A DNA stretch of 30,929 bases, taken from NCBI GenBank assembly GCA_938045215.1, contig CALINF010000331.1, forward strand, positions 1 through 30,929, read 5' to 3'. The position numbers were made by a program, and so were the translations under genes. The notes under the pieces are model-generated. The model was not told the DNA's origin and made no database searches. It saw nothing but the letters and a program-made list of their open reading frames with translations. The first letter of the stretch is position 1. Each line of letters starts with the position of its first letter. Below are positions 1,738 through 21,827 of the stretch, piece after piece. The stretch comes from an uncultured Halieaceae bacterium (GTDB lineage: Bacteria; Pseudomonadota; Gammaproteobacteria; Pseudomonadales; Halieaceae).

Positions 1738-1801
1738 CCCAAGAACGTTTCATCGCGGCAACACCGCGACTCGAACAAACCACCTGAAAGAGGATCAATC
1801 G

Positions 1802-2245: not shown

Positions 2246-2299
2246 CCAACTGCGCCGATTTAGCCCTCGTCGGTACAGCGCTGGTATCGGAGCTCGTCA

Positions 2300-3112: not shown

Positions 3113-3141
3113 CCAGGTCATTACGAAAGGGTGCCAGTTCT

Positions 3142-4753: not shown

Positions 4754-5686
4754 TTGCAGGCAGCCAATTGGGGGCATTCCCATCTGACGACTTTACTAGG
4801 ACACAGGCTATTGAATGGCTGGGCGCTCTTTGGAATTATAGCTGCGCTCATTTCCTCGCTTGTTATCAATCAAATGTTTGCTGCAAACCTCTCTACCGGC
4901 GAAGGTATTTCAGCAATGATCGGGTACTCAGTACGTCTGGCAGTTCCGTTTATCTATCTCGCAATGGCAGCCTCGTCATTCAACATTCTGTTCCCAGGCA
5001 ACGTATCGCGCTGGTGGTTGCGTAACCGTCGGTACATTGGACTATGCTTCGCAGCAGGGATGGCATGGCAAGCCGTTTTTATCTTCACACTGTCCACCGT
5101 CTATCGCGACTATTACGCAGAGAGTGTCTACTACTTTCGCGACGAGCTGGAGGGCAGTGTTGGCTATATTTTCCTCGCCGCTATGGTGCTCACCTCATTT
5201 GCGCTGGGGCGCAAGCGCGTCGATCAAACGCAGTGGAAGATTATTCAGAAGGGCGGTATCTATTGTCTGTGGGCCTACGCGTTTAGCGTTTACTGGTGGA
5301 ATCTCTTTTACTACGCCGACCCAAGGCCAATTGACTATCTTTACTACTGGAGTGGGTTCCTTGCATTCTCACTGCGTATTGCAGCCTGGGGTAAGCAGCG
5401 CCAACAAAAGAGCCGGGCGCACAACTCTCACACAACCAGTGCACTTGTGTACAAGAGCCTGGGCGGCATACTCATCGTCTCCGGTATGTTCATCGCGGCA
5501 ACGGGATTGTATTGGCAGACCGCTGTTACGGGGTTTCTCACCTCGACAGGGTGGTCCGCTGAGCTTGAACTCTGGTTACCCTTCTGGCCGTTCGAGCCCT
5601 TTTTATCCCTACTGACAATCGGCTTGGGCGCTGCGGTTTTTACGAAATCTACAATAGGGGTTGGCAATGTCTCACAACCAGTTTGA
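4754..5686 (+). CDS. Ferric reductase-like/MsrQ-like transmembrane protein lacking the haem-ligating His residues
   Basis: LRNRRYIGLCF, AAMVLTS and QWKIIQ align by eye with MsrQ RRxLGL, LAxTS and WxxLH. Multiple TM helices. The TTG start is uncertain. Confidence 0.7.
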   Translation: MQAANWGHSHLTTLLGHRLLNGWALFGIIAALISSLVINQMFAANLSTGEGISAMIGYSVRLAVPFIYLAMAASSFNILFPGNVSRWWLRNRRYIGLCFAAGMAWQAVFIFTLSTVYRDYYAESVYYFRDELEGSVGYIFLAAMVLTSFALGRKRVDQTQWKIIQKGGIYCLWAYAFSVYWWNLFYYADPRPIDYLYYWSGFLAFSLRIAAWGKQRQQKSRAHNSHTTSALVYKSLGGILIVSGMFIAATGLYWQTAVTGFLTSTGWSAELELWLPFWPFEPFLSLLTIGLGAAVFTKSTIGVGNVSQPV

Positions 5687-7262
5687 TGCCATCATTTTGG
5701 GCGCGGGTCACAATGGACTGACAGCTGCAAACTATCTCGCCATCGGCGGGATGAAGGTGTGTGTTCTTGAGCAGCGTCACGTCGTCGGCGGCGCCGCCGT
5801 GAGTGAAGAATTCCACCCGGGCTACCGCAACTCACTCGCATCGTACGTTGTCAGCTTGTTACGCAGCGAAGTGGTTCGGGATCTAGAGCTGGAACGCTAT
5901 GGCTACGAGCCACTACTGCTGGAGAATTCGCTATACCTGAATTCTGGCGGTGACTACCTGCTGCTAAATGGTGACGAGGGTCATGACCGGGCAGAGTTCG
6001 GTCGCTTTTCCGCTAGCGACTACGATGCCATGCTCGCCTTCGAGGAAAGCGTCGACAAGGTTGGTGGCATACTTGCAAAACAGTGGTTGAAGACCCCGCC
6101 CAAGCTGCATGGTGGTGGGCTGAGCGACCTGTTGGAGAGCGTGAAGCTGGGCCTGGACGTACACCGCCTTGATAAGGACAGCCGCTGGAGGCTACTACAG
6201 TTTTTCATCGGCGCACCCCAGAGCATCATCGAGCGCTGGTTTGAGAGTGACAAGGTCAAGGCCATGGTTGCAGCGCACATTATGCCCGCCAACTATGCGC
6301 CCCTGACCCAGCCAGGCGCCAGCCTGGCAATGCTACACCACGCAGTCGGCGAGATAGCCGGACGCAAGGGCGCGTGGGGTCTGGTGAAGGGCGGAATGGG
6401 TACGATTACGCAGGCAATGGCGAATTCGGCACGAGACAAGGGCGTCACGATCCAGACCAATGCCGGGGTTGAGCAGATTCTCATCGAGGGCGGCGCGGTC
6501 TCAGGCGTGCGACTGGAAAATGGCGACACGATTCTCGCCCCGGTGGTGGCGGCCAACACCGATCCCAAGCGTACGTTCCTGACACTGGTGGGCGAGGAAC
6601 ACTTGCCCAGCGACTTTGTTCGCGACATCAGCGCGTTCCGCCAGGAATCTGCGTCTCTGCGTATGAATCTCGCACTCAGTGGGCTCCCTGATTTCAAGGC
6701 ACTGCCCTCTGCAGGCATCGGCCCCCAGCATCAAGCCAGCATCACGCTGATAGAGAGCATGCAGCACCTTGATGAGGCCTACTTGTCAGCGCGCTCCGGT
6801 ATACCTGCACAGCCACCAATCATTGAGGCCATTATTCCCAGCGCGGTCGACAACAGTCTCACTGACAAGCCAGGTACTCACGTGATGAGCCTGCTATGCA
6901 AATATATGCCATACGATCTGGCGAACGGTGAGCATTGGGACGCCAAGAAGCCCAGTGTGGTGCAGAATATCCTCGAGCATGTCACCCGCTTCATTCCGAA
7001 TCTTCCTGAGATATTAGTCCACACGCAATGCCTGACGCCGCTGGATATTGAGCGGCTGTTTGGTATGACGCGAGGTGATATCTGTCATGGACGTATGGAG
7101 CCGGATCAACTGTACAGCGCCCGCCCCCATCCGGATGCCGCGCAATATGCCACACCAATCGGCGGACTCTACCTGTGCGGTTCCGGCACTCACCCCGGGG
7201 GGGGTGTTACCGGTGCACCAGGCCACAACGCCGCTCGCCGTATCCTGAAGGACAGGCGCTAG
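5667..7262 (+). CDS. COG1233 phytoene dehydrogenase-like (PYROXD2-like) FAD oxidoreductase, copy A
   Basis: GAGHNGL Rossmann motif, VGGAAVSEEFHPG, LHHAVGE...GAWGLVKGGMG and C-terminal LYLCGSGTHPGGGVTGAPGHNAA. The start overlaps the upstream gene by 20 nt. Confidence 0.88.
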   Translation: MSHNQFDAIILGAGHNGLTAANYLAIGGMKVCVLEQRHVVGGAAVSEEFHPGYRNSLASYVVSLLRSEVVRDLELERYGYEPLLLENSLYLNSGGDYLLLNGDEGHDRAEFGRFSASDYDAMLAFEESVDKVGGILAKQWLKTPPKLHGGGLSDLLESVKLGLDVHRLDKDSRWRLLQFFIGAPQSIIERWFESDKVKAMVAAHIMPANYAPLTQPGASLAMLHHAVGEIAGRKGAWGLVKGGMGTITQAMANSARDKGVTIQTNAGVEQILIEGGAVSGVRLENGDTILAPVVAANTDPKRTFLTLVGEEHLPSDFVRDISAFRQESASLRMNLALSGLPDFKALPSAGIGPQHQASITLIESMQHLDEAYLSARSGIPAQPPIIEAIIPSAVDNSLTDKPGTHVMSLLCKYMPYDLANGEHWDAKKPSVVQNILEHVTRFIPNLPEILVHTQCLTPLDIERLFGMTRGDICHGRMEPDQLYSARPHPDAAQYATPIGGLYLCGSGTHPGGGVTGAPGHNAARRILKDRR

Positions 7263-7311
7263 CGCCCTGACTTGCCTTGGGTGGGGGGTTTCTACGCTAT
7301 TGCTTAGCCAG

Positions 7312-8892
7312 CTAACGATCCCTGAGTATGGCGTTGGCCGCATTATGTCCAGGCAGCCCACTGACGCCACCACCTGGATGAGCGCCAGAACCACACAGGT
7401 ACACGCCCTGCACTGGCATCTTGTACGCAGCGTGTCCTGGAATCGGTCGCAGAGAATAGAATTGGTCAAGGTGCAACGCGCCGTGGAAGATATCCCCGCC
7501 AACCATGTTCAGGTCCCGCTCAATATCCAGTGGCGTCTTTATCTGTCGCCCGACTATCGACGCTTTGAAGTTCGGTGCGTATTGATCAATGGTATCGACA
7601 ATGACGTCGGCCGCCTCATCACGAACATCATCCCAATTGCGACCATCCGGTAAATGGCGCTGAAAATGCTGACAGAACAGGCTGGCCACGTGGCCGCCCG
7701 GTGGCGCCAGCGAATCGTCCTGGGTTGATGGCACCTGCATGGATATCACTGGTTTGCGCGACCAGCCCAGTTGCCTTGCATCATAATAAGCGTTCTGGAT
7801 GTAACCTAGCGACGGACTGACTTCGATCGCGCCCATGAAGTGCTCTTCACCCCGACCCGCCATGCTCGTAAACCTGGGTAGCTCAGACAATGCCACATTC
7901 ATGCGAAAGGTCGCAGAGTGGCTTCGATAATTTTCGATTCTGCGTTGATCGGGTGGGTCGAGACTGTCGCTATCAAGAAGTTTTTGCAAGAGTATTTGTG
8001 GATGCACATTGGCCGCAACGAATCGCGATGTGAGCTCTCTGCCATCAGCAGTGAGCACACCACACGCCTTGCCATCGCGAGTCAGGATTTTGCTAACCGG
8101 CGAACTGGTTTCTATTCGGGCTCCCTTGCTGCGTACAAACGAGGCCATTGATTCACTGATCGCGCCCATGCCGCCTCTAGCAATACCCCAGGCGCCCGCG
8201 CGACCCTTAACCTCACCGAAAGCGTGGTGCAATAACACGTAGGCTGTACCAGCATGGTATGGCTCGGCAAAGTTCCCAATAACACCCTCCAGCCCCAGCA
8301 CACCCTTAAATGCTTCACCCTCAAACCAGGTGTCCAGGTAATCGCCAAGCGAGCGTGTCATCAGTTCCGCCAGCACCGTCTGGTGATGTTTGTCCAATTT
8401 ACGCAATAGGTTCCCGGCTTTAAGCAAACCGACCGCATCTCGCCAACCTCCACCAATATTGGGAGGCGACTGCACCGCCAGTTCGCGCAGCGCCATCGCC
8501 ACCGTCGCAATGCCAGAGTCGAATTCTTCCATGCGCTGGGCATCACGCCGGGAGAAGCGCGCCACCTCGGCGTGAGCCTGGGCATCATCGCGTGTCAATA
8601 ACAGATGGTCGTTTTCGAGCAAACTGAGCGTGCCTGCGGGTCGTTCAAGAATATCCAGCCCGTGCTGCTCCAGCTGCAGATCAGCAATGACCCGTGGATG
8701 CAGCAAGCTGACGGAGTACGAGTACACCGAGTTTCTAAAGCCCGGGTGAAATTCCTCCGTTACAGCGGCACCACCCACCACAGGTCGTGACTCCAGCATC
8801 AGAACCCGCAGTCCGGCACGCGCAAGGTAGCCAGCGCAGGTCAGTCCGTTGTGTCCTGCACCGATGACAATAACGTCGGCATCCATCGCCAT
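7312..8892 (-). CDS. COG1233 phytoene dehydrogenase-like (PYROXD2-like) FAD oxidoreductase, copy B
   Basis: GAGHNGL, VGGAAVTEEFHPG, LLHHAFGE...GAWGIARGGMG and YLCGSGAHPGGGVSGLPGHNAA. A GAGGGA SD precedes ATG 8892. Confidence 0.88.
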   Translation of the reverse strand: MAMDADVIVIGAGHNGLTCAGYLARAGLRVLMLESRPVVGGAAVTEEFHPGFRNSVYSYSVSLLHPRVIADLQLEQHGLDILERPAGTLSLLENDHLLLTRDDAQAHAEVARFSRRDAQRMEEFDSGIATVAMALRELAVQSPPNIGGGWRDAVGLLKAGNLLRKLDKHHQTVLAELMTRSLGDYLDTWFEGEAFKGVLGLEGVIGNFAEPYHAGTAYVLLHHAFGEVKGRAGAWGIARGGMGAISESMASFVRSKGARIETSSPVSKILTRDGKACGVLTADGRELTSRFVAANVHPQILLQKLLDSDSLDPPDQRRIENYRSHSATFRMNVALSELPRFTSMAGRGEEHFMGAIEVSPSLGYIQNAYYDARQLGWSRKPVISMQVPSTQDDSLAPPGGHVASLFCQHFQRHLPDGRNWDDVRDEAADVIVDTIDQYAPNFKASIVGRQIKTPLDIERDLNMVGGDIFHGALHLDQFYSLRPIPGHAAYKMPVQGVYLCGSGAHPGGGVSGLPGHNAANAILRDR

Positions 8893-8912
8893 AGAATCAT
8901 CCCTCACAGTAG

Positions 8913-8950
8913 TGTGACCGAAAGCACGGTCACAGAGTATCCAAAGTATA
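8913..8950 (-). promoter_or_regulatory. Candidate -10 box (TATACT, minus strand 8950-8945) followed by a perfect 8-bp inverted repeat (8913-8934)
   Basis: TGTGACCG-AAAGCA-CGGTCACA is visible directly. No -35 match lies at 17 bp spacing. Confidence 0.35.
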
Positions 8951-9088
8951 GGCAGTGCATACTCTATGCGCCTCCGCGCCGATGGGCTAGGAAGATAAGG
9001 CCGTTTCTATGTGCTTAACTCACAATGACGGTTTACACGTTCAGGACATTTCAATCAGACACGTTTTTTACCCCCAGGAGACAATGTC

Positions 9089-9439
9089 ATGCCAGAAATC
9101 AGCGTACAGCACGGATGTGCTTCTCTTACCGATTTGGTCAAAGTGGACTCATTCGGCGACCCTATTGGCGAGCTTCCGCTACAGACCGACAAGGGCTTCT
9201 TCGAACAAGGTAATATGGTTGCAGGCACCTGGGAGTGCGAGGTGGGCGCGCTGAAGCTCGACCTCGATGTGACCGAATTCTGCCATCTGCTGGAAGGACA
9301 CTGGAAGCTTACGTCAGAGTCAGGACAGGTAACCGAAGTGAAAGCCGGCGACAGTTGGGTATTCCCAAAAGGGTGGAAAGGTACTGCCGAAGTGCTGCAG
9401 AAAGTCCGCAAGGTCTATCTGATGATAATGCCGGGTTAA
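9089..9439 (+). CDS. DUF861 (Cupin_3) cupin, cytoplasmic
   Basis: AGTWECEVG, TEFCHLLEGHWKLT and VKAGDSWVFPKGWKGT. CAGGAG SD. DUF861 cupins commonly neighbour PuuB-like oxidases. Confidence 0.85.
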   Translation: MPEISVQHGCASLTDLVKVDSFGDPIGELPLQTDKGFFEQGNMVAGTWECEVGALKLDLDVTEFCHLLEGHWKLTSESGQVTEVKAGDSWVFPKGWKGTAEVLQKVRKVYLMIMPG

Positions 9440-9546
9440 CTTCCCTATCCCCTACCCCACCGTTATAGCTGCTCTCTCCGGGCGCGGCCTCAGGTAATCT
9501 GCTGGTCGCCCTGTACGGTGGCTGTTAACGCCGGATTTCGCGCACT

Positions 9547-10848
9547 CTAAAGAGCATCCTTGAGCTTGTACCAGCTCATCCCCAGCGCGAGACCGGGCCG
9601 GCGCAGGAGCTTACCTCCAGGGAATGGCCAATGTGGAATTCTGGCAAACACATTAAAACGTTCGGGTGAGCCGCTGATCATCTCGGCCATGATGCGGGCC
9701 ATGATGTGTGTGGGAGCCACCCCATGCCCCGAATAGGCCTGAATGTAGCTGACTCCTTCTGACAGGTGACCGAGCTGGGGCATACGATTGATACCGATAC
9801 CAATCTGCCCACTCCAGCCATAGTCGACCTGAGCATCTTGCAGTTCGGGAAATACCTTATGCATCTTGCGGGACAGGACGCCCACCACGTCGCTGGGTTC
9901 AAGTCCGGAATAGTTCGATAAGCCACCAAACAACATGCGCTTGTCGGCGGACAGGCGAAAATAATCAAGCGCCGTTCGTGGATCACAAACGGCCACATCA
10001 CCCGGTAGAATTTTCTGCGCCAGGTTATCAGGCAAGGGGGCGGTGGCAATAACCGAACTGCTGGAGGGCAACACGCGACTGGCAAGGCGACTGACCAAAC
10101 CCCCGAGATACGCATTGCCACACAAAATCACCTTGCGTGCAGTGATGCTGCCGCGCTCCGTGACTACACGAGGCCTGGGCCCCTGCACCAGGTTCAGCAC
10201 CCTGGATTGCTCAAAAATTCTGGTGCCTAGCCGCTCCGCGGCCCTCGCCTCGCCAATGCAGAGATTCAGCGGATGAATATGCCCATTGGCGTAATTGAGC
10301 AATCCTCCGAGATACTGCTGCGAGCTCACAAACTGTTTCAGCTCATCCTTGTCCAGCAGTGTGTATTCGTGTGTATTGCCGATCGACTTTTCAAAGTCCT
10401 TCCACTGGGCAAACGCCGTCATATGCCGAGGCTTCAATGCGACATCGCAGTATCCCCATTTCAGGTCGCAATCGATTTCATACTTCTCAACACGCTCGGC
10501 AATAATGTCGCGTGCCTCCAGACCCATCTGATAAATCGCCCGCACGCCCTCTTCGCCGATGTGTTTGGTGAATCGCTCAGGATCGTGACCAATACCACCT
10601 ATGATCTGTCCGCCATTGCGGCCGGTGGCGCCCCAACTGATCCGATTCGCCTCCAACAACGCCACGTCTATCCCGCGCTCGGCTAATTCAAGGGCTGTAT
10701 TGACGCCACTAAACCCACCACCTACAACCACCACATCAGCGTCGATATCCTCTTCCAGAGTGGGGTAGTCGGTCTGCCAGTTAGCGGTAGCAGCGTAAAA
10801 GGAGCAGGTATGCTCTTGAGTTTCAGACGGACTCTTTAGTCCCAGCAT
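9547..10848 (-). CDS. puuB: Gamma-glutamylputrescine oxidase-like FAD oxidoreductase (PuuB/PauB, DAO family)
   Basis: SFYAATAN, VVVVGGGFSG, GATGRNGGQ, GHIHPLNL, DYFRLSADKRMLFGG and YSGHGV. A strong GGAGG SD precedes ATG 10848. Confidence 0.85.
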   Translation of the reverse strand: MLGLKSPSETQEHTCSFYAATANWQTDYPTLEEDIDADVVVVGGGFSGVNTALELAERGIDVALLEANRISWGATGRNGGQIIGGIGHDPERFTKHIGEEGVRAIYQMGLEARDIIAERVEKYEIDCDLKWGYCDVALKPRHMTAFAQWKDFEKSIGNTHEYTLLDKDELKQFVSSQQYLGGLLNYANGHIHPLNLCIGEARAAERLGTRIFEQSRVLNLVQGPRPRVVTERGSITARKVILCGNAYLGGLVSRLASRVLPSSSSVIATAPLPDNLAQKILPGDVAVCDPRTALDYFRLSADKRMLFGGLSNYSGLEPSDVVGVLSRKMHKVFPELQDAQVDYGWSGQIGIGINRMPQLGHLSEGVSYIQAYSGHGVAPTHIMARIMAEMISGSPERFNVFARIPHWPFPGGKLLRRPGLALGMSWYKLKDAL

Positions 10849-10933
10849 TGAATTCCTCCAAGAAAAACTTTCACTAACTAACACGACAACAACAGCGGAA
10901 AACTGCCGGAATAGCTGCGTTCGATATTGAGCC

Positions 10934-10948
10934 TTAATCGCAGATTAA
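10934..10948. promoter_or_regulatory. Palindrome TTAATC-GCA-GATTAA in the puuB/puuA divergent region, candidate operator
   Basis: Perfect 6-bp arms seen in the sequence. Function is inferred from position only. Confidence 0.3.
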
Positions 10949-11078
10949 CGTCAAACCTGTGCACGTTGGCACTGCACTCCCGCCCTATACGTCAGGTAGA
11001 CGAGCGTTCACAGAGCAGATTAGCTATTCTTGTTTAACGCACGCCATGAAGACAACACAGGATGGAAAGGTTCAACTG

Positions 11079-12464
11079 ATGAAGATCGCCCCGCAATCTG
11101 AGCTAGAGCATTTTTTGCAATCGCACCCTGATGTTCAAATGCTGGAACTACTCATGCCGGACATCAATGGCATTCTGCGCTGCAAACGCATACACCGACG
11201 CGAATTCGACAGTTTATTCGATCGCAGTTTCAAGGCCCCGCTGAGCGTCCCACTACTTGGCATAATGGGTGAGTTGTACGATGAGGACCTATCTCACGAC
11301 CTGCTGGCGGGCGATCCCGATCAACTCCTGTTGCCAATTACAGGATCGCTGGCAACGATACCCTGGCTGGAATCGTCCACGGCTCAGGTCTTGGGTGGGT
11401 TTGCGGATATGGATTTGCAACCATCATGGACCGATCCTAGAAACGTACTGGCCAACGTGCTGGATCAATACACCAGCAGGCAACTAAAGCCGGTGGTCGC
11501 AACGGAGCTGGAGTTCTATCTACTGGCTAACAACAGCGACTCGGTCCCCTCCCCCCTTATGGGTGAGATACCGGGCACCGATCTCAAACAACAGGGCATA
11601 CAGTACTGCATGGCAGACGATCTGTTTGAATGCGACGCATTCCTGGATGACGTTAGAAAAGCCTGCGAGACTCAGAATGTACCCCTGACTGCCATACACT
11701 CGGAGTTCTCCGCAGGTCAGTGGGAAATTAATACCCATCATACAGACGATCCTGTGACGGCCTGCGACCACGCCGTATTGTTGAAACGCATCGTCAAAGG
11801 CGTTGCGCGCAAACACGGCTTTGGAGCTACCTTCATGGCTAAGCCCTTCGATGAATCCGCCGGCAGCGGTCTACACATTCATGCCAGCGTTTACGGTAGC
11901 GATGGCCGTAACATCTTCGCCGAGCTAAGCGGTGAATCGTCTACGGTTGTCTCAGACACGCTTCTGCATGCGATTGGAGGTCTGAGCGATACTCTGAGTG
12001 AGTCGATGGCAATCTTCGCGCCAAACGCAAACTCGTACCGCCGTTTCAAGGCTGGCGCTTTTGCCCCTTCCTCCCATACCTGGGGCCACAACCACCGGGA
12101 GGTGGCATTGCGTATACCCGTATCGTCGCCGGATAATCGGCGGATTGAACACCGGGTCGCGGGAGCAGATGCCAACCCTTACCTTGTAATGGCTGCAGTA
12201 CTGGCGGGCCTACTCCATGGTATGAGCAACAAGCTGGACCCCGGAGCGCCAATACCCAGCGGTGCCGATCTGTCTAATTCGCAAGTCACGCTGCCGCGTC
12301 GATGGGATGAAGCGCTCGCGCTGTTTAGAAGCAGCACAATACTGCCGGAGTATCTGGGTAAAACCTACTGCGACACCTTTGCCGCACTGCGCCAGGGTGA
12401 GTGTAACGACTATCATGGCCGCGTTTCCAACCTCGACTATGAGTGGTATCTCAGAGCACTGTAG
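11079..12464 (+). CDS. puuA: Glutamine synthetase-like gamma-glutamyl-polyamine synthetase (PuuA/PauA), copy 1
   Basis: PDINGILRCK, ATELEFY, EFSAGQWEIN, GSGLHIH, NANSYRR and RIEHRVAGADANPY. The GS-I YEAP flap is replaced by AFAP...TWG. Divergent from puuB. Confidence 0.85.
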   Translation: MKIAPQSELEHFLQSHPDVQMLELLMPDINGILRCKRIHRREFDSLFDRSFKAPLSVPLLGIMGELYDEDLSHDLLAGDPDQLLLPITGSLATIPWLESSTAQVLGGFADMDLQPSWTDPRNVLANVLDQYTSRQLKPVVATELEFYLLANNSDSVPSPLMGEIPGTDLKQQGIQYCMADDLFECDAFLDDVRKACETQNVPLTAIHSEFSAGQWEINTHHTDDPVTACDHAVLLKRIVKGVARKHGFGATFMAKPFDESAGSGLHIHASVYGSDGRNIFAELSGESSTVVSDTLLHAIGGLSDTLSESMAIFAPNANSYRRFKAGAFAPSSHTWGHNHREVALRIPVSSPDNRRIEHRVAGADANPYLVMAAVLAGLLHGMSNKLDPGAPIPSGADLSNSQVTLPRRWDEALALFRSSTILPEYLGKTYCDTFAALRQGECNDYHGRVSNLDYEWYLRAL

Positions 12465-12482
12465 TACTGGCTTTAAATGACA

Positions 12483-13253
12483 CTAGGCGGAAAATTTTTC
12501 CTGGGAACGGCGGTAGTGCGCAGGTGTTTGACCCGTCGCCTTTTTGAACGCAGCGTAAAACGTTGATGTCGAGTTAAAACCCACCTGTAGCGCTACGTCG
12601 AGGATCGATGCGGTTTCATTTCCGCCCAAGGCCAGTATTCGTGTGGCTTCCGCCACCCGATGGCGATTCACAAAGTCAAAGAATGAAACACCGTGCCCTT
12701 CGTTGATTGCCTGCGATAGATGGTTAACTGAACAACCCAACATAGCTGCGAGCTGGGGCAGCGACAAGTGCGAATCCAGATACACCCTATCCTCGTTCAT
12801 CGCTTCCGACAAACGCACTGTGACCGCCCTCAAGCCCGATGCACTGAGCCCCGACTTTGCGTATCGCTTGCCATGAGAGGAGCCTGCGGTAACACGACCT
12901 ATAAGCTGCGGCTCTCGATAGTAGTCCTCGATTTTTAGCGCGCTATCCCCGTCCATGGTGATGAACTCCGCGCCGATCCAACCTGTTGCGGGATCCTCAT
13001 CTCCCTCCGGAGATGCTCGATACTGAAACGCGATAGTGGACTCTCCTGCAAGCACCTCTCCTACCAACGTGTAGCAATGGTTATCCTGACGAAAATACTC
13101 CTGAAGATGGCTGACCAGCTCATCTCGTGCGAGCAGCTGCTGGGAAGGAATATCGAAATAGGTGCCTCCTCGAGAGAGATGATCGGCGACCTGTTTAGGA
13201 TCATGCCGATTCCAGGCATCGAAGTAGCTTTCCACAAAATCAGAGGTCAACAT
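12483..13253 (-). CDS. AraC family regulator with an N-terminal SnoaL/NTF2-like domain
   Basis: N-terminal FVESYFDAWNRHD...YFDIP is SnoaL-like. C-terminal LSLPQLAAMLGCSVNHLSQAIN, FFDFVNRHRV and ILDVALQVGFNSTSTFYAAFKKATGQTP form the AraC double HTH. Confidence 0.85.
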   Translation of the reverse strand: MLTSDFVESYFDAWNRHDPKQVADHLSRGGTYFDIPSQQLLARDELVSHLQEYFRQDNHCYTLVGEVLAGESTIAFQYRASPEGDEDPATGWIGAEFITMDGDSALKIEDYYREPQLIGRVTAGSSHGKRYAKSGLSASGLRAVTVRLSEAMNEDRVYLDSHLSLPQLAAMLGCSVNHLSQAINEGHGVSFFDFVNRHRVAEATRILALGGNETASILDVALQVGFNSTSTFYAAFKKATGQTPAHYRRSQEKFSA

Positions 13254-13300
13254 CTGCAACAGACCCTACCAACAGTACAATAGACTACATTGAATACCAT
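13247..13300 (-). CDS. Possible 17-aa leader peptide (MVFNVVYCTVGRVCCRC) overlapping the regulator start codon
   Basis: AGGAGG (13314-13309) lies 8 nt before ATG 13300. The stop TGA (13249-13247) overlaps ATG TTG A of the AraC gene by 7 nt. Confidence 0.3.
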   Translation of the reverse strand: MVFNVVYCTVGRVCCRC

Positions 13301-13306
13301 ATACCT

Positions 13307-13406
13307 CCCCTCCTGTCATGAACGGCGAAGCGCGAAGACGATCATGCTGTACCGCAATTACCAACCAATGCCTGTAGGCATGGAAGCGCAATCGGTGACA
13401 GAGGGG
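13307..13406. other. Predicted structured RNA element in the araC / membrane-protein divergent region
   Basis: Outer arms CCCCTCCTGTCA (13307-13318) and TGACAGAGGGG (13396-13406) pair with one bulge. Inner hairpin ATGCCT-GT-AGGCAT at 13368-13381. Confidence 0.3.
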
Positions 13407-13448
13407 TTATGTTAGTCTCACGCATTCGACAGCCGACAAGCCTTTGCT

Positions 13449-14306
13449 ATGAGCCACCACCCTACCGACACAGCCATGGCCCAACGAGCGGGGTTTGATC
13501 CACGGCAGTTGATCAAGGTCGTTGTGTACGGCCTGCTGCTCGTAAACTTTGGTCTTTATCTTGTCGAAGATATAGCGATATCTGCTCATACGCTTCGCAA
13601 CGGCGGGACATGGCTGGACTATACGGCTGCTTTTGCGGTGTCTCTGGATGTACTTGCATGGCTTACTCTTCTGGCTCTGTTCGAACTTGAAACCTACCTG
13701 CTTTCTGACGACGCCTTTACACCTCGCAGAATAAAGGCGATGCACGGCATCAGAATTGTCTGCTACCTGTTTCTTGCACACACCCTGCTAGCTTACGCGA
13801 ATGCTGGCAAGGATCTCATAGGTCTGACTCCGATACAGGAGACAGATAGCCTGTGTCAGCTGGTGGGGCGCGACATTTCTTTTGGTTTTAATCTGGAGTA
13901 CACCGAGCTGAATCTGGAAAACTGCATCGAGTTATCCCGTGCGACAGAGTTCTACTTAATCGAGAACGACTCGGTGGTGACCGATGCGCAAGGGCTGCAG
14001 ATAGAGAGGGAGCTTGTCTGGCTGGATCTGGTTGAAGCTGTTACCTGGCTGGTGATCCTGCTTTGCATGGAGGTCATCGTGCGCTTGCAGGATCGCGGGA
14101 CAACTCGCGGCGTGCTGATTCGCAGTGCCAGCGGGATCAAACTCTTCCTCTACCTGTTGCTGTGGGGCGCGGCGGCTTACTGGATTTACCGGGGGCATTA
14201 TATGTATGCCTGGGATGAAGCGCTGTGGATTCTCGGCTTCTTCGCTATCGAGATGAATATCTCGGACTGGAAGAAAGAAATTCGAAGTGCTGACGCAGCG
14301 CCCTAG
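13449..14306 (+). CDS. Hypothetical 6-TM membrane protein with three internal two-helix repeats
   Basis: Three [K/R]xxxYxxL helices alternate with three [D/E]xxxWx7E helices. A large loop contains two Cys (136 and 159). Alternative start at 13476. Confidence 0.8.
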   Translation: MSHHPTDTAMAQRAGFDPRQLIKVVVYGLLLVNFGLYLVEDIAISAHTLRNGGTWLDYTAAFAVSLDVLAWLTLLALFELETYLLSDDAFTPRRIKAMHGIRIVCYLFLAHTLLAYANAGKDLIGLTPIQETDSLCQLVGRDISFGFNLEYTELNLENCIELSRATEFYLIENDSVVTDAQGLQIERELVWLDLVEAVTWLVILLCMEVIVRLQDRGTTRGVLIRSASGIKLFLYLLLWGAAAYWIYRGHYMYAWDEALWILGFFAIEMNISDWKKEIRSADAAP

Positions 14307-15514
14307 AACGCCGGTGGTGGTGTTGCGCGCGCCCTGGCCGGTGCCCAGAAGGGCTTATCCTTGACCTCACAGCGTGCAACCTTGCGATAATACCGCAGCT
14401 CTTTTTGATAGTAGATCTCTGCCCAAATCTCACGATCCAGCATCGATGTCTCGACCATGGCAAGCGCGATGTTCGCCTTGACAGAGGGAGACCACATGGC
14501 TGATGTGATATAGCCAATCTCTTTACTACACCGTTTACCGCTGTACAGAATCGCCCCCTCTGCAGGTTTGTTGCCCTCGATATCCAGTTTCGTAAGCGTG
14601 TATCTGGGGCCCCGATCGCGCTCCTCCAGCAGGGCGCGGCGTCCATTAAAATGCGGCTTTTTGAAATCCACCAACCAGCCCAGATTCAGCTCGAACGGCG
14701 TCTGGTCGTGCTGAAAATGAATGGTCTTTAACGCCTCGGAAAATTCCATATCCGGCATAATAAAGCCAGCTTCCAGTCGAGCCATATTGGTCGCCGCTTC
14801 CCCATAGGGGTGTATCCCGTGATGCTCGCCCGCTGCGTAAAGTGCATCCCACATCGCTATTGCCTGAGACGGGTCTATCCACAGCTCGTAACCTAAGTCA
14901 CCCGTAAAGCCTGTGCGTGAAACCATCAGCGACGCGTCGTTGAAAGGGAAATGCATCACGCCAAACGGCTTCAGGTTTTCGATACCATCGAGACCCATGG
15001 TCAGCAATGTGGCGCAGGACGTGGGGCCCTGCAAAGACAGTGCCGCATAGCGCTCTGTCATATCTTCGACTGACAGATCATCAAACCCCAGACAGCTCTT
15101 GCGCAGCCAGGCCAGGCACGGACTCCCACAGGTCAGCATGAAACGATCCTCGCCAAGCCTGAAGATTGTTCCGTCATCAACCATGCGGCCTTCATCGGTA
15201 CACCAGCAAACGTAGGTGACCCTGTCGACTTTCAACTTGGACACGTCCCGTGTAACCATGCGATCCAGCATGGCAACTGCATCCGGCCCACTGATCATAT
15301 ATTTCTGCATGGGGCAGATGCCGTAGGTGGCACAGGTATTTCTGATGCAGAAATATTCGTACTCGGCATCGTAATAGTAATCGGCAAACTTAAACCCGTT
15401 CCACGAGGACCACGCATCGCGCAGGTTCATCGGTGCCTGGCGCTCATGAAAATGCGAGTGCTTTAGTCGCTCCCCCGCAAACGGATCATTGTGGGCGATG
15501 GCTTCACTCGTCAT
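14303..15514 (-). CDS. Stand-alone GcvT-like aminomethyltransferase (folate-binding) family protein
   Basis: GRMVDDGTIFRL, ALSLQGP, SRTGFTGDLGYELW, ARLEAG, FNGRRAL and IGYITSAMWSP. GAGG SD lies 9 nt before ATG 15514 (alternative start 15523). It overlaps the upstream stop. Confidence 0.87.
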   Translation of the reverse strand: MTSEAIAHNDPFAGERLKHSHFHERQAPMNLRDAWSSWNGFKFADYYYDAEYEYFCIRNTCATYGICPMQKYMISGPDAVAMLDRMVTRDVSKLKVDRVTYVCWCTDEGRMVDDGTIFRLGEDRFMLTCGSPCLAWLRKSCLGFDDLSVEDMTERYAALSLQGPTSCATLLTMGLDGIENLKPFGVMHFPFNDASLMVSRTGFTGDLGYELWIDPSQAIAMWDALYAAGEHHGIHPYGEAATNMARLEAGFIMPDMEFSEALKTIHFQHDQTPFELNLGWLVDFKKPHFNGRRALLEERDRGPRYTLTKLDIEGNKPAEGAILYSGKRCSKEIGYITSAMWSPSVKANIALAMVETSMLDREIWAEIYYQKELRYYRKVARCEVKDKPFWAPARARATPPPAF

Positions 15515-17123
15515 AGCAATCATCCTCAGGTACGGTGTTGGGCCGCTTCAGGTCGATCAGGATCTCGCGTGCCGCATTGGCGCCGCACGCGGAAGAGACG
15601 CCGCCTCCGGGGTGGGTTGATGATCCACACATATACATATTTTTTAGGGGCATTCTGTATTGCCCGTAGCCCGGGAAAGGGCGGTTGAAAAGCAGTTGAT
15701 CAATCGTAAGCTCTCCCTGAAAAATATTGCCCTCTGTCAGCCCTATCTCGTTCTCAATTTCGTGAGGGGTGCGCACTTCCATGTGAACAATGAGGTCTTT
15801 GAACCCCGGGCTATAGCGCTCGAGTTTATCAATGACCGTTTGCCCAAACTGATCCCGTTTCTCGGGTGTCCAGGGTCCATCAGCAAGCTCGGGTGGGCAG
15901 TACTGGACAAAATTGGACATCCAGTGCTTACCGACAGGCGCCACGGTGGGATCCCAAGCCGAAGGAATAATCGATTCAATAAAAGGATCGTCAGACCAGC
16001 GGCCGCGCTTCCAGCAATCGTACGCTCGCTCCATGGTTTCCAGTGAACCTGCAAAACCCTGCCCGCCGCGGTTGATGTAGCGATTGTCGGGCACATTGTT
16101 AAACTTCGGCATCCCAGACAACGCAATATTCACTTTGCCCGATGAGCCACGGATCTTGAAGTTTTTGGCTCGCTCGAAGATGCCCGGCGGCAGGTCCTTC
16201 TTGTCCATCACCTTGGTAAAGGTACGACGCGCATCCAGGTTCGATACGACGATACCAGCGTGAACCTCTTCGCCACTCTCCAGTGCCACTCCCACAGCCT
16301 TGCCATCTTCAACCAAAATCTGTTGAACCCCGGCCCCGGTACGTATCTCTCCGCCTTCAGCCTGTAATGCACTAGCCAGCGCGTTTGAAATTGCGCCCAT
16401 ACCACCGCGAGCCAAACCCCAGGCACCCACGTTGCCATCCACGTCGCCCATGACGTGGTGCAACAGAATATAGGCGGAACCCGGTGAATACACGCCCAGC
16501 GCAGTTCCAATGATGCCAGGACTGGCCATAGCGGCCTTAATCAGGTCGCTCTCAAAGTATTCATCCAGAAACTCAGCAGCACTCATCGTGAAAAAACGCA
16601 CATACTCATAGAGTTCTCGTTCACCCAAAGACCAGAACTCTTTGGCCAGAAACAACATCTCACGGATATCGCGCGGCTTGAATGAACTAGGATCCGGGGG
16701 CGTTCGCATCAACGTCTTGCGGATCAGCTGTGCATAGCGCCCCAGGTCTGCCTGAAAGCGCATCATAGAGTCTGCATCGTGCGGTGAATGCCGTCTCAAT
16801 TCCAGATAGCTGGCTTCGGCATCTGGATAATCTATGAGTGTCTCGCCGCTGTCGCTAAAAGTTACTGTGCCCAGGTAAGGCACCAGAAGCAGACCATGTC
16901 GGGTAAGATCAAGATCGCGATGAATGCTTTGACGCATCATGCTGCACACATAGGAACAGCTGGAGTAGAACCATCCATCGTGCATCTCGCGGGTGACCGC
17001 CGCGCCACCGATGTAGTCGTTCTTCTCTACCACCACCACGTCCAAACCGGCTTTTGCCAGGTATGCGGCATTGGTCAAGCCGTTGTGACCAGCGCCAACA
17101 ACGATGGCATCGTACTGTTTCAT
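15504..17123 (-). CDS. COG1233 (PYROXD2-like) FAD oxidoreductase, copy C
   Basis: GAGHNGL, IGGAAVT, YILLHHVMGD...GAWGLARGGMG, TEGNIFQGEL and YMCGSSTHPGGGVS. Confidence 0.9.
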   Translation of the reverse strand: MKQYDAIVVGAGHNGLTNAAYLAKAGLDVVVVEKNDYIGGAAVTREMHDGWFYSSCSYVCSMMRQSIHRDLDLTRHGLLLVPYLGTVTFSDSGETLIDYPDAEASYLELRRHSPHDADSMMRFQADLGRYAQLIRKTLMRTPPDPSSFKPRDIREMLFLAKEFWSLGERELYEYVRFFTMSAAEFLDEYFESDLIKAAMASPGIIGTALGVYSPGSAYILLHHVMGDVDGNVGAWGLARGGMGAISNALASALQAEGGEIRTGAGVQQILVEDGKAVGVALESGEEVHAGIVVSNLDARRTFTKVMDKKDLPPGIFERAKNFKIRGSSGKVNIALSGMPKFNNVPDNRYINRGGQGFAGSLETMERAYDCWKRGRWSDDPFIESIIPSAWDPTVAPVGKHWMSNFVQYCPPELADGPWTPEKRDQFGQTVIDKLERYSPGFKDLIVHMEVRTPHEIENEIGLTEGNIFQGELTIDQLLFNRPFPGYGQYRMPLKNMYMCGSSTHPGGGVSSACGANAAREILIDLKRPNTVPEDDCYDE

Positions 17124-18664
17124 TTGAGTATCTCGTGGGCTGCGTTGAAGCCGGGGCCGCCCATCAAGCCGCCACCCGGGTGGCTACCCGCGCCACAGAG
17201 ATACAGACCCGGAATCGGGGTGCCGTATTGGGCCGCCTCATAGGTAGGACGCATCATCAGCAGCTGATCAACGGCAAACTCGGTATGGTGCCAATGGCCA
17301 CCGGTCACATGGTGAAGCGACTCCAGGTCATGGGGCGTCAGGAGTTCCGCGTGCAGGACAAGCTCCCTCAGACCCGGCGCATGGCGCTCCAGGGTTGTGA
17401 GCAACCGTTCCAGCAAGGCCGAGCGGGCCGCGTCTGTCCAGCCGCCTTTCGGTGAAGCGGGGACATACATTACATTTGCTGACAGCACATGCTGACCGGC
17501 GGGCGCCATCGACGCATCCTGTAATGAGGGAATCACCAACTCCATTACCGGGTTCTCCGACGCAGCACCGTATTTGGCATCGTCGAACGCAAACTCCAGC
17601 GCGTCCGGCTCTGAGGCGATGATCATGCGTCCGTCCGGACGATCCACGCCGACGAACGAAGGGACATCGCCAAGTGCAAGATGGAGCTTGGCCACATAGC
17701 CCTCACAGCGCAGTCGCTGGATACGATTGGCGAACTCTATTTCCAGATACCTTGCCCCAACCAGTTGCAAGAATGTGCGCTGTGGATCGGCGCAGGAGAC
17801 AATTCTGGTGGCCGTGATCTTCTCGCCGTCGGCCAGCTCTACTCCGGTTGCCTGCTGGCCATCCTCGCTCTGCGAGATGCATATCTTTGTGACCGGGGCA
17901 TTAAGGCGCACCTGCGCGCCCGCAGCAGTGGCTGCGTTGAGCAGTGCATTGATGAGCCCCTCTATGCCCGTGCCGGGAATAGCATGCCCACCGTTATGAT
18001 CTCCCAACATTCGATACAACAGCGCAAAGACCGCGCTGTTGGGTGAGCGCGGCGCCAGCTTTGACCCCACAAGTCCATCCCAGCTCAGAGCGGCCTGGAG
18101 GTGTTTGTTGTCGAAGTATTCATCCATAAGATCGCGCATCGGCAATGTGGCGACCCGAAGGAACTCGAGCATGTCTTCCTTGCCCAGCCTTCGCAGGCGC
18201 AATCCCAACTGCCCGAACGTCAACATCTCTCCCGGGCTGTTGTTGCCAATGCGCGGCATTGTCTTCATCCAAAAGGGTTCAAGCGCGCGCGCGAACTTTT
18301 GCATCGCTGCGCGGTACCTTAGATAGCTGCTCTTATCATCATCCGAGACCCCGGTTACGCCGTCTACACCTATGACGACGTGCTCACCATCCAGGTTCAG
18401 CCCTATCGTGGGCAGCGGCGCGATAGCGGGTTGATAGCCATGCGATTGGAGCTGCAGATCTTCTACAACCCTGGGAGAAAAGTGGCTGATAGTGTGAGCA
18501 ACAGATGCCTTGAAACCCGGATGAAACTCACGGGCAGATGCAAGGCCACCAGGCGCAGCCGAAGCTTCCAGAACCAGCACGCGTTGACCCTGTTTGGCCA
18601 GGTAGGCCGCACAGATCAGTCCGTTGTGACCTGCGCCGATTACGATTGTGTCGTAGCTATTCAC
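17120..18664 (-). CDS. COG1233 FAD oxidoreductase, copy D (divergent partner of copy C)
   Basis: GAGHNGL, PGGLASAREFHPG, TGGHWHH and LYLCGAGSHPGGG. GTG start. Its stop overlaps the start of copy C by 4 nt (ATGA). Confidence 0.88.
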   Translation of the reverse strand: MNSYDTIVIGAGHNGLICAAYLAKQGQRVLVLEASAAPGGLASAREFHPGFKASVAHTISHFSPRVVEDLQLQSHGYQPAIAPLPTIGLNLDGEHVVIGVDGVTGVSDDDKSSYLRYRAAMQKFARALEPFWMKTMPRIGNNSPGEMLTFGQLGLRLRRLGKEDMLEFLRVATLPMRDLMDEYFDNKHLQAALSWDGLVGSKLAPRSPNSAVFALLYRMLGDHNGGHAIPGTGIEGLINALLNAATAAGAQVRLNAPVTKICISQSEDGQQATGVELADGEKITATRIVSCADPQRTFLQLVGARYLEIEFANRIQRLRCEGYVAKLHLALGDVPSFVGVDRPDGRMIIASEPDALEFAFDDAKYGAASENPVMELVIPSLQDASMAPAGQHVLSANVMYVPASPKGGWTDAARSALLERLLTTLERHAPGLRELVLHAELLTPHDLESLHHVTGGHWHHTEFAVDQLLMMRPTYEAAQYGTPIPGLYLCGAGSHPGGGLMGGPGFNAAHEILK

Positions 18665-18755: not shown

Positions 18756-20798
18756 TCAGCAGACCGCTTGAACATCTACCGTACAATCGTAATAGCACGC
18801 GCCACCCGCCATATCGGCTTTGTGCCCCGGTATCAACGCATTGATCGTCTGACCCGTAGCACTCTCTACAAGCCAGGCGCCCTTGGGAACAAATACGGTG
18901 CCGGTACGGACACTGTCGGATATCGCAAGCGGCATCCTGACTTCGCCCTGATCATTGAAGAGACTCACTTCTTCACCATGAGACAACGCGAGGCTCGCCG
19001 CGTCCACGGGGTGCATCTCGCACACAATATCGCTCTTGTGATCCGCAAGCCCCCCGAACGTCGAGTTGATACGTCGCTCCGATGCCGGACTCACGAGAAC
19101 GAATTGTCGTGCTGCCTCAAGCTCGCGATAACGGGGCAGACCGAGCCCAGCCTCCGCCTCCAGGGCCTCACTGTATAGCTCAATTTTGCCACTGGGCGTC
19201 GCGGGCGATACTCCACGTAGCAAGCCCGGAGTAGTTATCGCTGACATATCTATTGCGCTATCAAGAGGGAGCCTACTAGGTTGCCGTCCATCAAGACCAG
19301 GGGTGGCTGCATTTACGGCTTGATCCATCAACTGTTCATCTGTATCGGTGAAGCACTCGTCCTTGAATCCGAAGCGGGTAGCGAGGCGGCGGAATATCTC
19401 CATATTGGGCAGCGCGTTCCCAAGCGGATCCAGCACGGGGGCGCTGCGCTGCAAATAGTGATGACCATAGGCCTTGTAGAGATCGCCGTATTCCAGGTGT
19501 GTGGCCGCTGGCAGGATTACGTCGGCGCAGGCCATTGAATCGGTCATGCTCACATCACAACCCACCACGAATACATCTTCGTCGAGCAAAGCCGCCCGCA
19601 TATCATCCTGGCGCGGATGTACCGCGATCGGATTGTGATTGTAGATAAACACCCCTTTGAGTGGCACTTCGCTGCCGGGGTCAAGGATATGCCGGGGCAG
19701 GTCCAGCACATTAAACTGACGCACATCAGCCGGGGCCAGGTCGGGGCGCTCAAGCGCATCATGGTCAATCGGAAAGTAGCCGGAGACATCACAGACGCCT
19801 GCCCCTTGCATGCCAAAGTTTCCTGTCAGCGCGGGCAGCGCAAACAGCGCACGCAGGCCAGAGCCCCCGTTGCGATTGCGCTCGGGGGCCACGCCTACGG
19901 AAATTGCCGCAGGCGACAGTTCCTGCCACCATTTGGCGAACTGCTCTATGTCTTCCACTGCCAGGCCGCAGATAGCGGCTGCCCGCTGTGGAGAATAGTT
20001 CGCTGCCTCAGCGAGAAACTGCTCTGCCCCGCTGACATGGCTCTCGATAAAGGCCTCGTCCAGTCCGCCGCGCCTGTTAAGGAGAGCTGCCACCGCATAG
20101 GCCAACACTACATCAGTGCCTGGCATGACCGGCAAATGGAGATCGGCCTCCTGAGCGATGCGTGTACGCTTCGGATCTACTACCACCAGCTTTGCGCCCT
20201 GTTTCTGAGCGTCACGCAATAGCGTCGTTAGATGCAAATTGCAGGCAGTGATGTTGTTACCCCATACGACAATCAAGCGAGAGTGTTGCAGCTCTGTGAA
20301 GGAAATACCGCCTACGTCGCCAAACACACTGTCCCACGCGGCGCTGGAGACACCCGCGCACAGAGGCGAAGAGTCGACCGCGCTCGCACCCAGGCGATGA
20401 AAAAAACGCTTGTCCATGGAACCGCCAGCGAGCAACCCCATGGGGCCACCATAGCTTAGGGGCGCTATCGCCTCGGCACCGTACTCCTCAATGATTGCCG
20501 CAAAGCGCTGATGCACAACGTCCAACGCCTCTTCCCATGACACGCGTCGGTATGCTCCGCCGCCTTTGGGGCCGCTGCGCAACAGTGGCTGGGTCAGGCG
20601 CTGCTCGCCGTGTACTTGCAGCGGTAAACCTTGTGCCACCTTCGCGCAGATTTTCCCTCGAGTGAACGGGTTTGCCTGACTTCCGCGAACTTTCTGTACC
20701 TTGCCATCAGCCACTTCAATCGACAGACTGCAGGTATCGGCACAATCTAAAGGGCAAATACTGGGGTGGCTTGTAAGGGGTGATTCAACCGATGCCAT
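18756..20798 (-). CDS. Mo/W-bisPGD molybdopterin oxidoreductase with N-terminal 4Fe-4S cluster (uncharacterised MopB subfamily)
   Basis: CPLDCADTC...GKICAK iron-sulfur motif, LVVVDPKRT, PGTDVVLA, ADVILPAATHLE, SGKIELYS and a C-terminal molydopterin-binding domain (EMHPVDA...NDQGEV). No Tat signal. AGGAG SD. Confidence 0.88.
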   Translation of the reverse strand: MASVESPLTSHPSICPLDCADTCSLSIEVADGKVQKVRGSQANPFTRGKICAKVAQGLPLQVHGEQRLTQPLLRSGPKGGGAYRRVSWEEALDVVHQRFAAIIEEYGAEAIAPLSYGGPMGLLAGGSMDKRFFHRLGASAVDSSPLCAGVSSAAWDSVFGDVGGISFTELQHSRLIVVWGNNITACNLHLTTLLRDAQKQGAKLVVVDPKRTRIAQEADLHLPVMPGTDVVLAYAVAALLNRRGGLDEAFIESHVSGAEQFLAEAANYSPQRAAAICGLAVEDIEQFAKWWQELSPAAISVGVAPERNRNGGSGLRALFALPALTGNFGMQGAGVCDVSGYFPIDHDALERPDLAPADVRQFNVLDLPRHILDPGSEVPLKGVFIYNHNPIAVHPRQDDMRAALLDEDVFVVGCDVSMTDSMACADVILPAATHLEYGDLYKAYGHHYLQRSAPVLDPLGNALPNMEIFRRLATRFGFKDECFTDTDEQLMDQAVNAATPGLDGRQPSRLPLDSAIDMSAITTPGLLRGVSPATPSGKIELYSEALEAEAGLGLPRYRELEAARQFVLVSPASERRINSTFGGLADHKSDIVCEMHPVDAASLALSHGEEVSLFNDQGEVRMPLAISDSVRTGTVFVPKGAWLVESATGQTINALIPGHKADMAGGACYYDCTVDVQAVC

Positions 20799-21773: not shown

Positions 21774-21827
21774 CAATCCGTCCTCAACATAATCCTGCTA
21801 TTAAAAAGCTGCCACTGAAGTTTGCTA

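Follow-up and report, generated by a model that had tools for sequence, protein, structure and literature searches.

PYROXD2-family flavoproteins in a Halieaceae amine island: two unlike paralogues share a conserved unit with a GcvT-like protein, a candidate folate-linked N-demethylase

The stretch of DNA analysed here, referred to as the window, comprises 30,929 nucleotides (nt) of contig CALINF010000331.1 (assembly GCA_938045215.1) and stems from a Halieaceae (OM60/NOR5-type) metagenome-assembled genome (MAG) that is 66.7% complete. Genes were called and the encoded proteins searched with Pfam and NCBIfam profiles, by which the window is a dense amine-catabolic (polyamine/agmatine) island holding four paralogous flavoproteins, denoted A to D. 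Two of these, C and D, differ from each other and belong, together with a GcvT-like protein, to a single conserved unit of three genes. The best explanation, and in our judgement a fairly probable one, is that D and C make up a two-flavoprotein, folate-linked N-demethylase, with A and B as stand-alone members of the family. The five genes concerned are located as follows.

5661–7262, + strand: paralogue A, 533 amino acids (aa), stand-alone type; Pfam Amino_oxidase/DAO/NAD_binding_8; the ATG at 5667 is the likelier start
7312–8907, − strand: paralogue B, 531 aa, PYROXD2-family flavoprotein
14303–15523, − strand: GcvT-like tetrahydrofolate (THF)-binding protein, 406 aa; Pfam GCV_T and GCV_T_C; probable start at ATG 15514
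15504–17123, − strand: paralogue C, 539 aa, the motif-bearing flavoprotein of the D-C-GcvT unit
17120–18664, − strand: paralogue D, 514 aa, the divergent partner flavoprotein; dinucleotide fold for flavin adenine dinucleotide (FAD) and HPGGG block kept

The four paralogues align end to end, with pairwise identities of 31–41% (BLASTP). A, B and C carry the signature L-H-H-x-x-G ... G-A-W-G ... G-G-M-G, which is not found in D; at the position of the L-H-H motif, D reads LLYRMLGD-HNGGHAIPGTGIEG. The segments ahead of the motif are AAHIMPAN in A, GLEGVIGN in B, ASPGIIGT in C and SWDGLVGS in D. A preliminary description of this DNA had reported four paralogues, three of them with the signature, and had quoted the same four segments; open reading frames and alignment agree with it exactly. 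The PF01266 matches in A, B and C cover the N-terminal dinucleotide fold only. C and D are 34% identical to each other. The stop codon of D and the start codon of C overlap as ATGA, and the 3' end of C overlaps the start of the GcvT-like gene.

The recurrence of this arrangement was surveyed at two levels. Within the order, 20 loci from 10 Pseudomonadales genomes were inspected, of which 18 contain a C-type gene closely related to C (identity of 47% or more). All 18 hold the C-type gene, a second paralogue and a GcvT-like gene; the second paralogue is D-type in 17 and more divergent in the remaining locus (L038). Two gene orders occur, either D-C-GcvT (type 1, with C 79–85% identical to that of the window) or C'-D'-GcvT' (60–69%), with up to four cassettes per genome. 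C is 79–87% identical across Halieaceae, Porticoccaceae and Woeseiaceae. A wider pattern scan, in which each species was represented by a single genome, yielded 80 loci carrying C-type genes of 47–87% identity; these belong to Gamma- and Alphaproteobacteria, Acidobacteriota, Gemmatimonadota, Chloroflexota, Dormibacterota, Planctomycetota and Actinomycetes. Of these loci, 62 are well flanked, with 3.2 kb or more of sequence to either side. Among them, the second paralogue lies within 400 nt in 60, and the distance to a GcvT-like gene is at most 2.5 kb in 61; both are found in 59, and the other three are near misses. The subclades of C and D mirror each other in the tree, and the cassettes have therefore been inherited and duplicated as units. 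The MAG itself (G000) has at least seven matches to the flavoprotein family. These include a second cassette of the C'-D' type (contig C283, 117–2016, − strand; C' is 61% identical to C, and the D-like start is cut by the contig end) and a further partial family member (C52, 51–1253). A literature search, with subscription journals largely outside its scope, found no published description of the trio.

The two flavoproteins of the unit are clearly asymmetric. The L-x-H-H motif is present in 84 of 84 C-type genes versus none of 76 D-type partners, while the FAD dinucleotide fold and the HPGGG block are kept in both types; the D-type proteins thus retain the cofactor fold without L-H-H or GAWG. 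Between the same genome pairs, orthologues of C are 85% identical, those of D 64–67%, and those of the GcvT-like protein about 75%. These data bear on the proposal of the preliminary description that all four are amine dehydrogenases of different specificity, which would make each paralogue a complete enzyme acting independently of the others. That all four are PYROXD2-family flavoproteins in an amine setting stands, and both the divergent segments ahead of the motif and the apparently stand-alone character of A and B would agree with the proposal. What does not hold is the independence of C and D: their types adjoin in 60 of 62 loci, the reading frames overlap, the phylogenies are mirrored, and the motif is lost in every one of the 76 D-type proteins. 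Four separate enzymes are hence improbable.

Within NCBIfam, the third member of the unit scores best against the model of trimethylamine N-oxide (TMAO) demethylase, in its C-terminal part, at 251 bits against an equivalog cut-off of 1100. The best match in the PDB is likewise TMAO demethylase (9q5a, residues 411–754, the THF domain; E 3e-49), followed by T-proteins, SoxA, the THF domains of DMGO and DMGDH, and DmdA. The catalytic N-terminal domain of the TMAO demethylase Tdm is not part of the GcvT-like protein, whose partner here is instead the flavoprotein pair.

The genes found beside the cassettes elsewhere point in the same direction. Among the 62 well-flanked cassettes, 17 have a GbcA-like Rieske oxygenase gene within 6 kb, 15 a class-III aminotransferase, 13 an APC permease and 10 a PurU gene. 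One cassette forms a purU-C'-D'-GcvT' operon whose neighbour is an AraC regulator containing an Arabinose_bd domain, and in HTCC2148 a GbcA-like Rieske gene directly precedes D-C-GcvT. In Leisingera, the C', D', GcvT' cassette occurs together with a BCCT betaine/carnitine/choline transporter gene and an aminotransferase gene, and a gene for a flavoprotein like trimethylamine dehydrogenase adjoins this set. Kiloniella laminariae DSM 19542 (L072, 6696–17284) combines aminotransferase, C', D', GcvT', an ADP-forming CoA ligase, a PuuC-like aldehyde dehydrogenase and a GbcB-type ferredoxin reductase in one run; as a cultured carrier of the cassette, it offers a good experimental entry point. The cassette neighbours are thus a setting of methylated-amine and betaine catabolism with one-carbon recycling.

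In the window, the unit is embedded in the following genes, where GS denotes glutamine synthetase and Mo-bisPGD molybdenum-bis(pyranopterin guanine dinucleotide).

1–1737, + strand: amine-oxidase-fold gene with its 5' end cut, the fifth such gene and unrelated to A–D; 621 aa in G152
1718–2245, + strand: signal-less cupin (cupin_3)
2300–3112, + strand: PhyH-type dioxygenase
3097–4359, + strand: MFS transporter (Pfam MFS_1), upstream of A
4754–5686, + strand: 310-aa protein without a Pfam match, its 3' end running about 20 nt into the start of A
9089–9439, + strand: cupin
9547–10884, − strand: DAO-family FAD oxidase, PuuB-/pipecolate-oxidase-like; Pfam DAO 230 bits, best NCBIfam model AmaA at 194 bits, below cut-off
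10959–12464, + strand: GS-like ligase, a candidate gamma-glutamyl-amine synthetase; Gln-synt_C 323 bits, gamma-glutamylputrescine synthetase model 208 bits, below cut-off
12483–13259, − strand: SnoaL-AraC regulator (Pfam SnoaL_2 and HTH_18)
13449–14306, + strand: 285-aa membrane protein without a Pfam or NCBIfam match
18756–20798, − strand: Mo-bisPGD oxidoreductase (Pfam Molybdopterin, Molydop_binding, Fe4S4); no NCBIfam equivalog reached
20835–21776, − strand: agmatinase (PRK02190 417 bits, cut-off 302; TIGR01230 269 bits, cut-off 174)
21828–23216, − strand: second GS-like ligase (GS2); Gln-synt_C 314 bits, every NCBIfam GS model below cut-off
23363–24733, + strand: class-III SpuC-type aminotransferase (PRK07480 696 bits, cut-off 510)
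24779–26149, + strand: APC-family amino acid/amine permease (Pfam AA_permease_2 186 bits)
26212–27655, + strand: small genes at the island edge, ABM-type monooxygenase-like, DUF2878 and chalcone-isomerase-like

The amine setting recognised in the preliminary description is borne out by the two PuuA-like GS genes, the agmatinase, the PuuB-like DAO oxidase, the SpuC-like aminotransferase and the APC permease. The entire island is syntenic in G152, a congeneric genome of 100% completeness, and all four flavoprotein copies are clustered again in a genome of another genus (G101). The genes on the − strand between 14303 and 23216 form one run in the order GS2-agmatinase-Mo-D-C-GcvT, starting with GS2. 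Beyond the window, the companions of the type-1 unit again include the SnoaL-AraC regulator, a GS-like ligase, the DAO oxidase and the 285-aa membrane protein. The DAO oxidase adjoins it in L021, L023 and L049, and SnoaL-AraC homologues do so in L023, L025, L049 and G152; GS-like genes lie next to cassettes in L029–L031, L040, L049, L055, L056 and L059. The commonest fourth neighbour of the type-1 unit is the 285-aa membrane protein, with homologues of 47–54% identity (80% in G152) that lie either upstream on the same strand (L021, L022, L024, L050) or after the GcvT gene (the window, L023, L049, L051, G152, HTCC2148). An atlas search with this protein returned unnamed clusters only; it may be a substrate importer or a membrane anchor.

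In the − strand run, the Mo-bisPGD gene stands between agmatinase and D and precedes the latter by 91 nt. It adjoins D also in G152, G101 and G086, in the last case as two open reading frames (357 and 349 aa). According to the first reading of the sequence, the oxidoreductase is cytoplasmic, without a Tat signal or signal peptide. We considered the Mo enzyme as an obligatory partner of the unit and rejected it, because the gene is missing from most other cassettes.

Several features lie outside the argument on the unit. The tightly spaced + strand run upstream of A (1–4359; amine-oxidase fold, cupin, PhyH, MFS) is kept in G152, and the role of a PhyH-type 2-oxoglutarate dioxygenase in an amine island is without explanation. 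The 310-aa protein, labelled a membrane protein in the first reading, is 84% identical in G152, where it also lies upstream of A; it was not found upstream of A in G101. The small genes at 26212–27655 show no evident tie to amine catabolism.

As the DNA had been described as free of carotenoid genes, and the Pfam and NCBIfam searches of the window indeed found none, it should be noted that the best NCBIfam model for all four paralogues is nevertheless a carotenoid one. CrtO (NF045689) scores 225–270 bits (A 225) against a cut-off of 1000, and database entries carry the name “phytoene dehydrogenase-like”, so that automatic annotation would make A–D CrtO-type ketolases or CrtI-type desaturases. 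PYROXD2-type genes of Chloroflexota, Planctomycetota and Actinomycetes reach 215–301 bits with this model, like A–D. No protein exceeded the CrtO cut-off when three genomes from other phyla, a set of 251 genomes from a single class and the control genomes were scanned. The scores on crtI_fam (TIGR02734) are 87, 114, 110 and 111 bits for A, B, C and D, respectively, versus a cut-off of 238.1. Neither a crtI_fam match above cut-off nor a phytoene/squalene synthase match (PF00494) was found in the MAG of the window, at its given completeness, or in the complete genome G152. A PF00494 match is present in G101 and G142, and related Halieaceae have both PF00494 and crtI_fam matches. In a tree rooted on Halieaceae CrtI (623 bits) and a CrtD-like protein, A–D lie across a branch with 100% support; the phylogeny with PYROXD2 and CrtI that had been suggested at the outset thus sets them apart from CrtI/CrtD. 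CrtI, CrtD and CrtO share the overall fold of C (CrtD 4rep, TM-score 0.75; 4dgk), but they differ by identities of 17–24%, by scores of about a quarter of the cut-off (CrtO) and by a separate clade (CrtI/CrtD). Because the complete genome of the same genus has the island yet lacks both phytoene synthase and CrtI, we rejected a carotenoid role, in line with the low profile scores, and regard its probability as negligible. A–D are PYROXD2-family FAD proteins, a branch of the CrtI/amine-oxidase fold that is unconnected with carotenoids in this genus.

The kinship to PYROXD2 is evident in both sequence and fold. A search of the full library with C as query returned 9168 proteins at E ≤1e-10, and animal PYROXD2 (oyster, mayfly, flatworm, choanoflagellate) was among the top representatives. 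Over the full length of about 530 residues, identities to animal PYROXD2 are 38–43% for B (three metazoans), 36–40% for A, 35–37% for C and 29–33% for D (BLASTP; E 1e-62 to 1e-133). B is the window protein closest to the metazoan homologues; for the choanoflagellate homologue, A is slightly above B (36.4% versus 35.5%). The fold search made use of the AlphaFold (AF2) model of C, one of the four paralogues (predicted local distance difference test, pLDDT, 93.5). Mammalian PYROXD2 takes ranks 1–5 in Swiss-Prot (TM 0.93–0.94, root-mean-square deviation 2.1–2.4 Å, 36–37% identity), followed by the limonene dehydrogenase CtmB/CtmA at 24–25% and CrtI-type proteins at about 20%. There is no solved structure within the family, and CrtD 4rep, quoted above, is the nearest to C. 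PYROXD2 and A–C have in common the segment L-L-H-H-x-M-G ... G-A-W-G ... G-G-M-G, which is kept in the PYROXD2 clade. Still, the tree resolves A/B, the PYROXD2 core and C+D as separate groups, each with 95–97% support and with a trichotomy as branching order; none of A–D is a PYROXD2 orthologue.

The next-best reviewed structural matches, CtmAB and the delta24-sterol desaturase (delta24-SD), provide an instructive comparison. In both, two paralogous subunits of about 26–27% identity form one enzyme (PMC4109377, PMC11061730), and both subunits carry a flavin-linked His in the motif G-F-[LR]-x-[NS]-[TL]-H-A (PMC11061730). D and C resemble these systems as two adjacent, diverged paralogues with a homologous N-terminal G-F-[LR]-x-[NS] loop. 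The loop itself is recognisable, and at the CtmAB His position it reads Cys in 72 of 84 C-type proteins (loop G-x-x-x-S-x-C-S-Y; G-W-F-Y-S-S-C-S-Y in C itself), Ala in A and Tyr in B, so that the flavin-linked His is not found in A, B or C. The D-type genes encode a conserved A-H in 53 of 76 cases, one or two residues past that position, and PYROXD2 itself has Ala-Ser-Tyr, as distinct from the Cys in C and the Ala-His in D. Covalent attachment of flavins to the Cys of C and the His of D is possible from the loop sequences, but since the CtmAB consensus is not matched exactly it stays a lead.

The same comparison raises the question of whether C and D could desaturate C–C bonds or hydroxylate allylic positions in a lipid or terpenoid outside the carotenoids, similar to CtmAB, the delta24-sterol desaturase or CrtI. 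Such enzymes are the sole biochemically characterised ones of the wider fold, they share the two-subunit design in the cases of CtmAB and delta24-SD, and a Mo enzyme adjoins the unit, as in anaerobic sterol side-chain oxidation (PMC11061730). Conversely, the Mo gene is missing from most cassettes, the identity of C to CtmAB (24–25%) is well below that to PYROXD2 (36–37%), and the flavin-linked His is not at its position. Moreover, CtmAB and delta24-SD act on allylic C–H bonds of terpenes and sterols with ferredoxin partners and no folate protein, whereas the neighbours here are amine, betaine and folate genes, with no ferredoxin, terpene or lipid genes. We consider this function quite improbable, slightly more so than four independent dehydrogenases.

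The combined data lead us to favour the folate-linked N-demethylase. D and C, co-translated via the ATGA overlap, would form a heteromeric flavin dehydrogenase with C as the catalytic subunit, carrying the L-L-H-H...GGMG signature, and D, with its FAD fold only, as an auxiliary or electron-relay subunit. The pair would oxidise the N-methyl C–N bond of a secondary or tertiary amine to the iminium, and the GcvT-like protein would transfer the one-carbon unit to tetrahydrofolate as 5,10-methylene-THF. The net reaction would be an oxidative N-demethylation without free formaldehyde, that is, the chemistry of dimethylglycine and sarcosine dehydrogenase on a non-homologous flavoprotein. Within this island, an N-methylated di- or polyamine, or a gamma-glutamyl derivative thereof, is the probable substrate, an assignment that is the weakest step of the argument, and the demethylated product could enter the route via the GS-like ligase, the DAO oxidase and the aminotransferase.

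Two groups of known enzymes share the proposed reaction type. DMGDH, SARDH, DMGO and 4-methylaminobutyrate oxidase likewise combine a flavoprotein with a GcvT-fold folate module and catalyse the same reaction as proposed for the trio; PurU and betaine-catabolic neighbours are found with these enzymes and with part of the cassettes. They differ in that a DAO-type FAD domain is fused to the THF domain, whereas the trio comprises PF01593-type flavoproteins, in the form of two unlike paralogues, and a separate folate polypeptide. SoxBDAG and N-methylglutamate dehydrogenase, multi-subunit, folate-linked N-demethylases encoded in operons with purU, resemble the enzyme proposed for the trio, and SoxA has a GcvT-like domain. 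Here the subunit types differ, and Pfam and NCBIfam searches of the window found no SoxB, SoxD or SoxG homologues.

A related alternative is that C and D oxidise a C–N bond other than that of an N-methyl group, as in polyamine or secondary-amine dehydrogenases of the SpdH/PAO type, with the GcvT-like protein acting on another step or on a released aminoalkyl or one-carbon fragment. The polyamine/agmatine island with its GS-like, DAO and transaminase genes would suit such an enzyme; the structural neighbours include putrescine oxidase, NicA2 and MAO, and DmdA provides a GcvT-family precedent for acting alone. This alternative does not account for the presence of a folate protein alongside the two flavoproteins in 61 of 62 loci from different phyla, nor for the recurrence of PurU, GbcA-like Rieske and BCCT genes as neighbours. 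We judge it unlikely, though the least unlikely among the alternatives discussed here.

Several points weigh against N-demethylation as the function of the unit. The chemistry is deduced from gene context and analogy; complex formation, the identity of the substrate and any bearing on human PYROXD2 are likewise inferred. The characterised relatives (CrtI, CrtD, CtmAB, delta24-SD) act on C–H or C–C bonds of lipids and not on amines. GcvT-family proteins such as DmdA and LigM can work alone as methyltransferases, and the flavoproteins and the folate protein could thus catalyse separate steps. No PurU, FolD or ETF (electron-transfer flavoprotein) gene lies beside the unit in the window. Of the carotenoid enzymes, the trees cover CrtI and CrtD. 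Furthermore, three bacterial members of the PYROXD2 clade (P0127, P0166, P0144) are single genes with no paired paralogue, GcvT neighbour, or amine or folate context, and distant B-like genes (48–53% identity) are likewise single genes in unrelated contexts with no amine genes. Because these relatives occur elsewhere without an amine context, the amine reading of A, B and PYROXD2 is weakened.

A and B form one clade, keep the PYROXD2 signature and are the most PYROXD2-like proteins of the window. The order of MFS gene and A is kept in G152 (MFS 93% identical) and G101 (61%), and A-like genes elsewhere adjoin a GS-like ligase. B has orthologues in the island of G152 (94%) and G101 (74%). A could be fed by its own MFS transporter, and both proteins might, as single subunits, dehydrogenate other amines without a folate partner. 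This is a weaker proposal than that for the unit, and stand-alone amine dehydrogenases are a tentative assignment for A and B that may well prove wrong. A separate observation concerns a 3-kb metagenomic contig (L134, 548–2840), on which a B-like gene (53%) is divergent to a small gene of the SET-domain (lysine methyltransferase) type, a single case and possibly chance.

PYROXD2 is a conserved animal mitochondrial flavoprotein, with a strong and replicated metabolite quantitative trait signal for methylated amines; a severe disorder of infancy has also been reported. Variants of the gene have been associated with trimethylamine in urine and dimethylamine in plasma, whose levels are higher when expression is lower (PMC3169529), with N6-methyllysine and N-methylpipecolate (PMC11888523), and with N2-acetyl-N6,N6-dimethyllysine (PMC13352909). 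The literature we found, up to July 2026 (PMC13352909), assigns no reaction to PYROXD2, in agreement with the preliminary description on both counts. The further suggestion that the locus could give PYROXD2 a function finds a basis in family homology but not in orthology, given the separate grouping of all four paralogues. PYROXD2 is itself a single gene without a paired paralogue or GcvT neighbour, unlike C and D, and since the three bacterial clade-mates examined are singletons without amine or folate context the transfer is confined to family-level homology. The bacterial trio would therefore serve as a family-level precedent, not as an orthologue, for C–N dehydrogenation of N-methyl groups by PYROXD2. 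A broader proposal is that the trio, present in at least 8 bacterial phyla, represents a new class of folate-linked amine N-demethylase, possibly with covalent flavins, and that human PYROXD2, A and B perform the same C–N dehydrogenation on N-methylated amines, for example N6-methyl-lysine derivatives, dimethylamine or trimethylamine; we put it forward as a possibility about which doubt slightly prevails.

If N-demethylation by the trio is true, it constitutes a third, non-homologous route to folate-linked N-demethylation beside the DMGDH/SARDH-type and SoxBDAG-type systems. On the human side, the trio gives PYROXD2 a concrete, testable chemistry, for which D+C+GcvT and the single-subunit proteins A and B are the reagents. 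Thousands of “phytoene dehydrogenase-like” annotations are probably wrong. Abundant marine heterotrophs (Halieaceae) carry multiple copies of the trio per genome, and it is also present in soil Acidobacteriota, Chloroflexota and rhizobia; with this copy number and wide spread, it may explain an unassigned share of methylated-amine and methylated-polyamine turnover.

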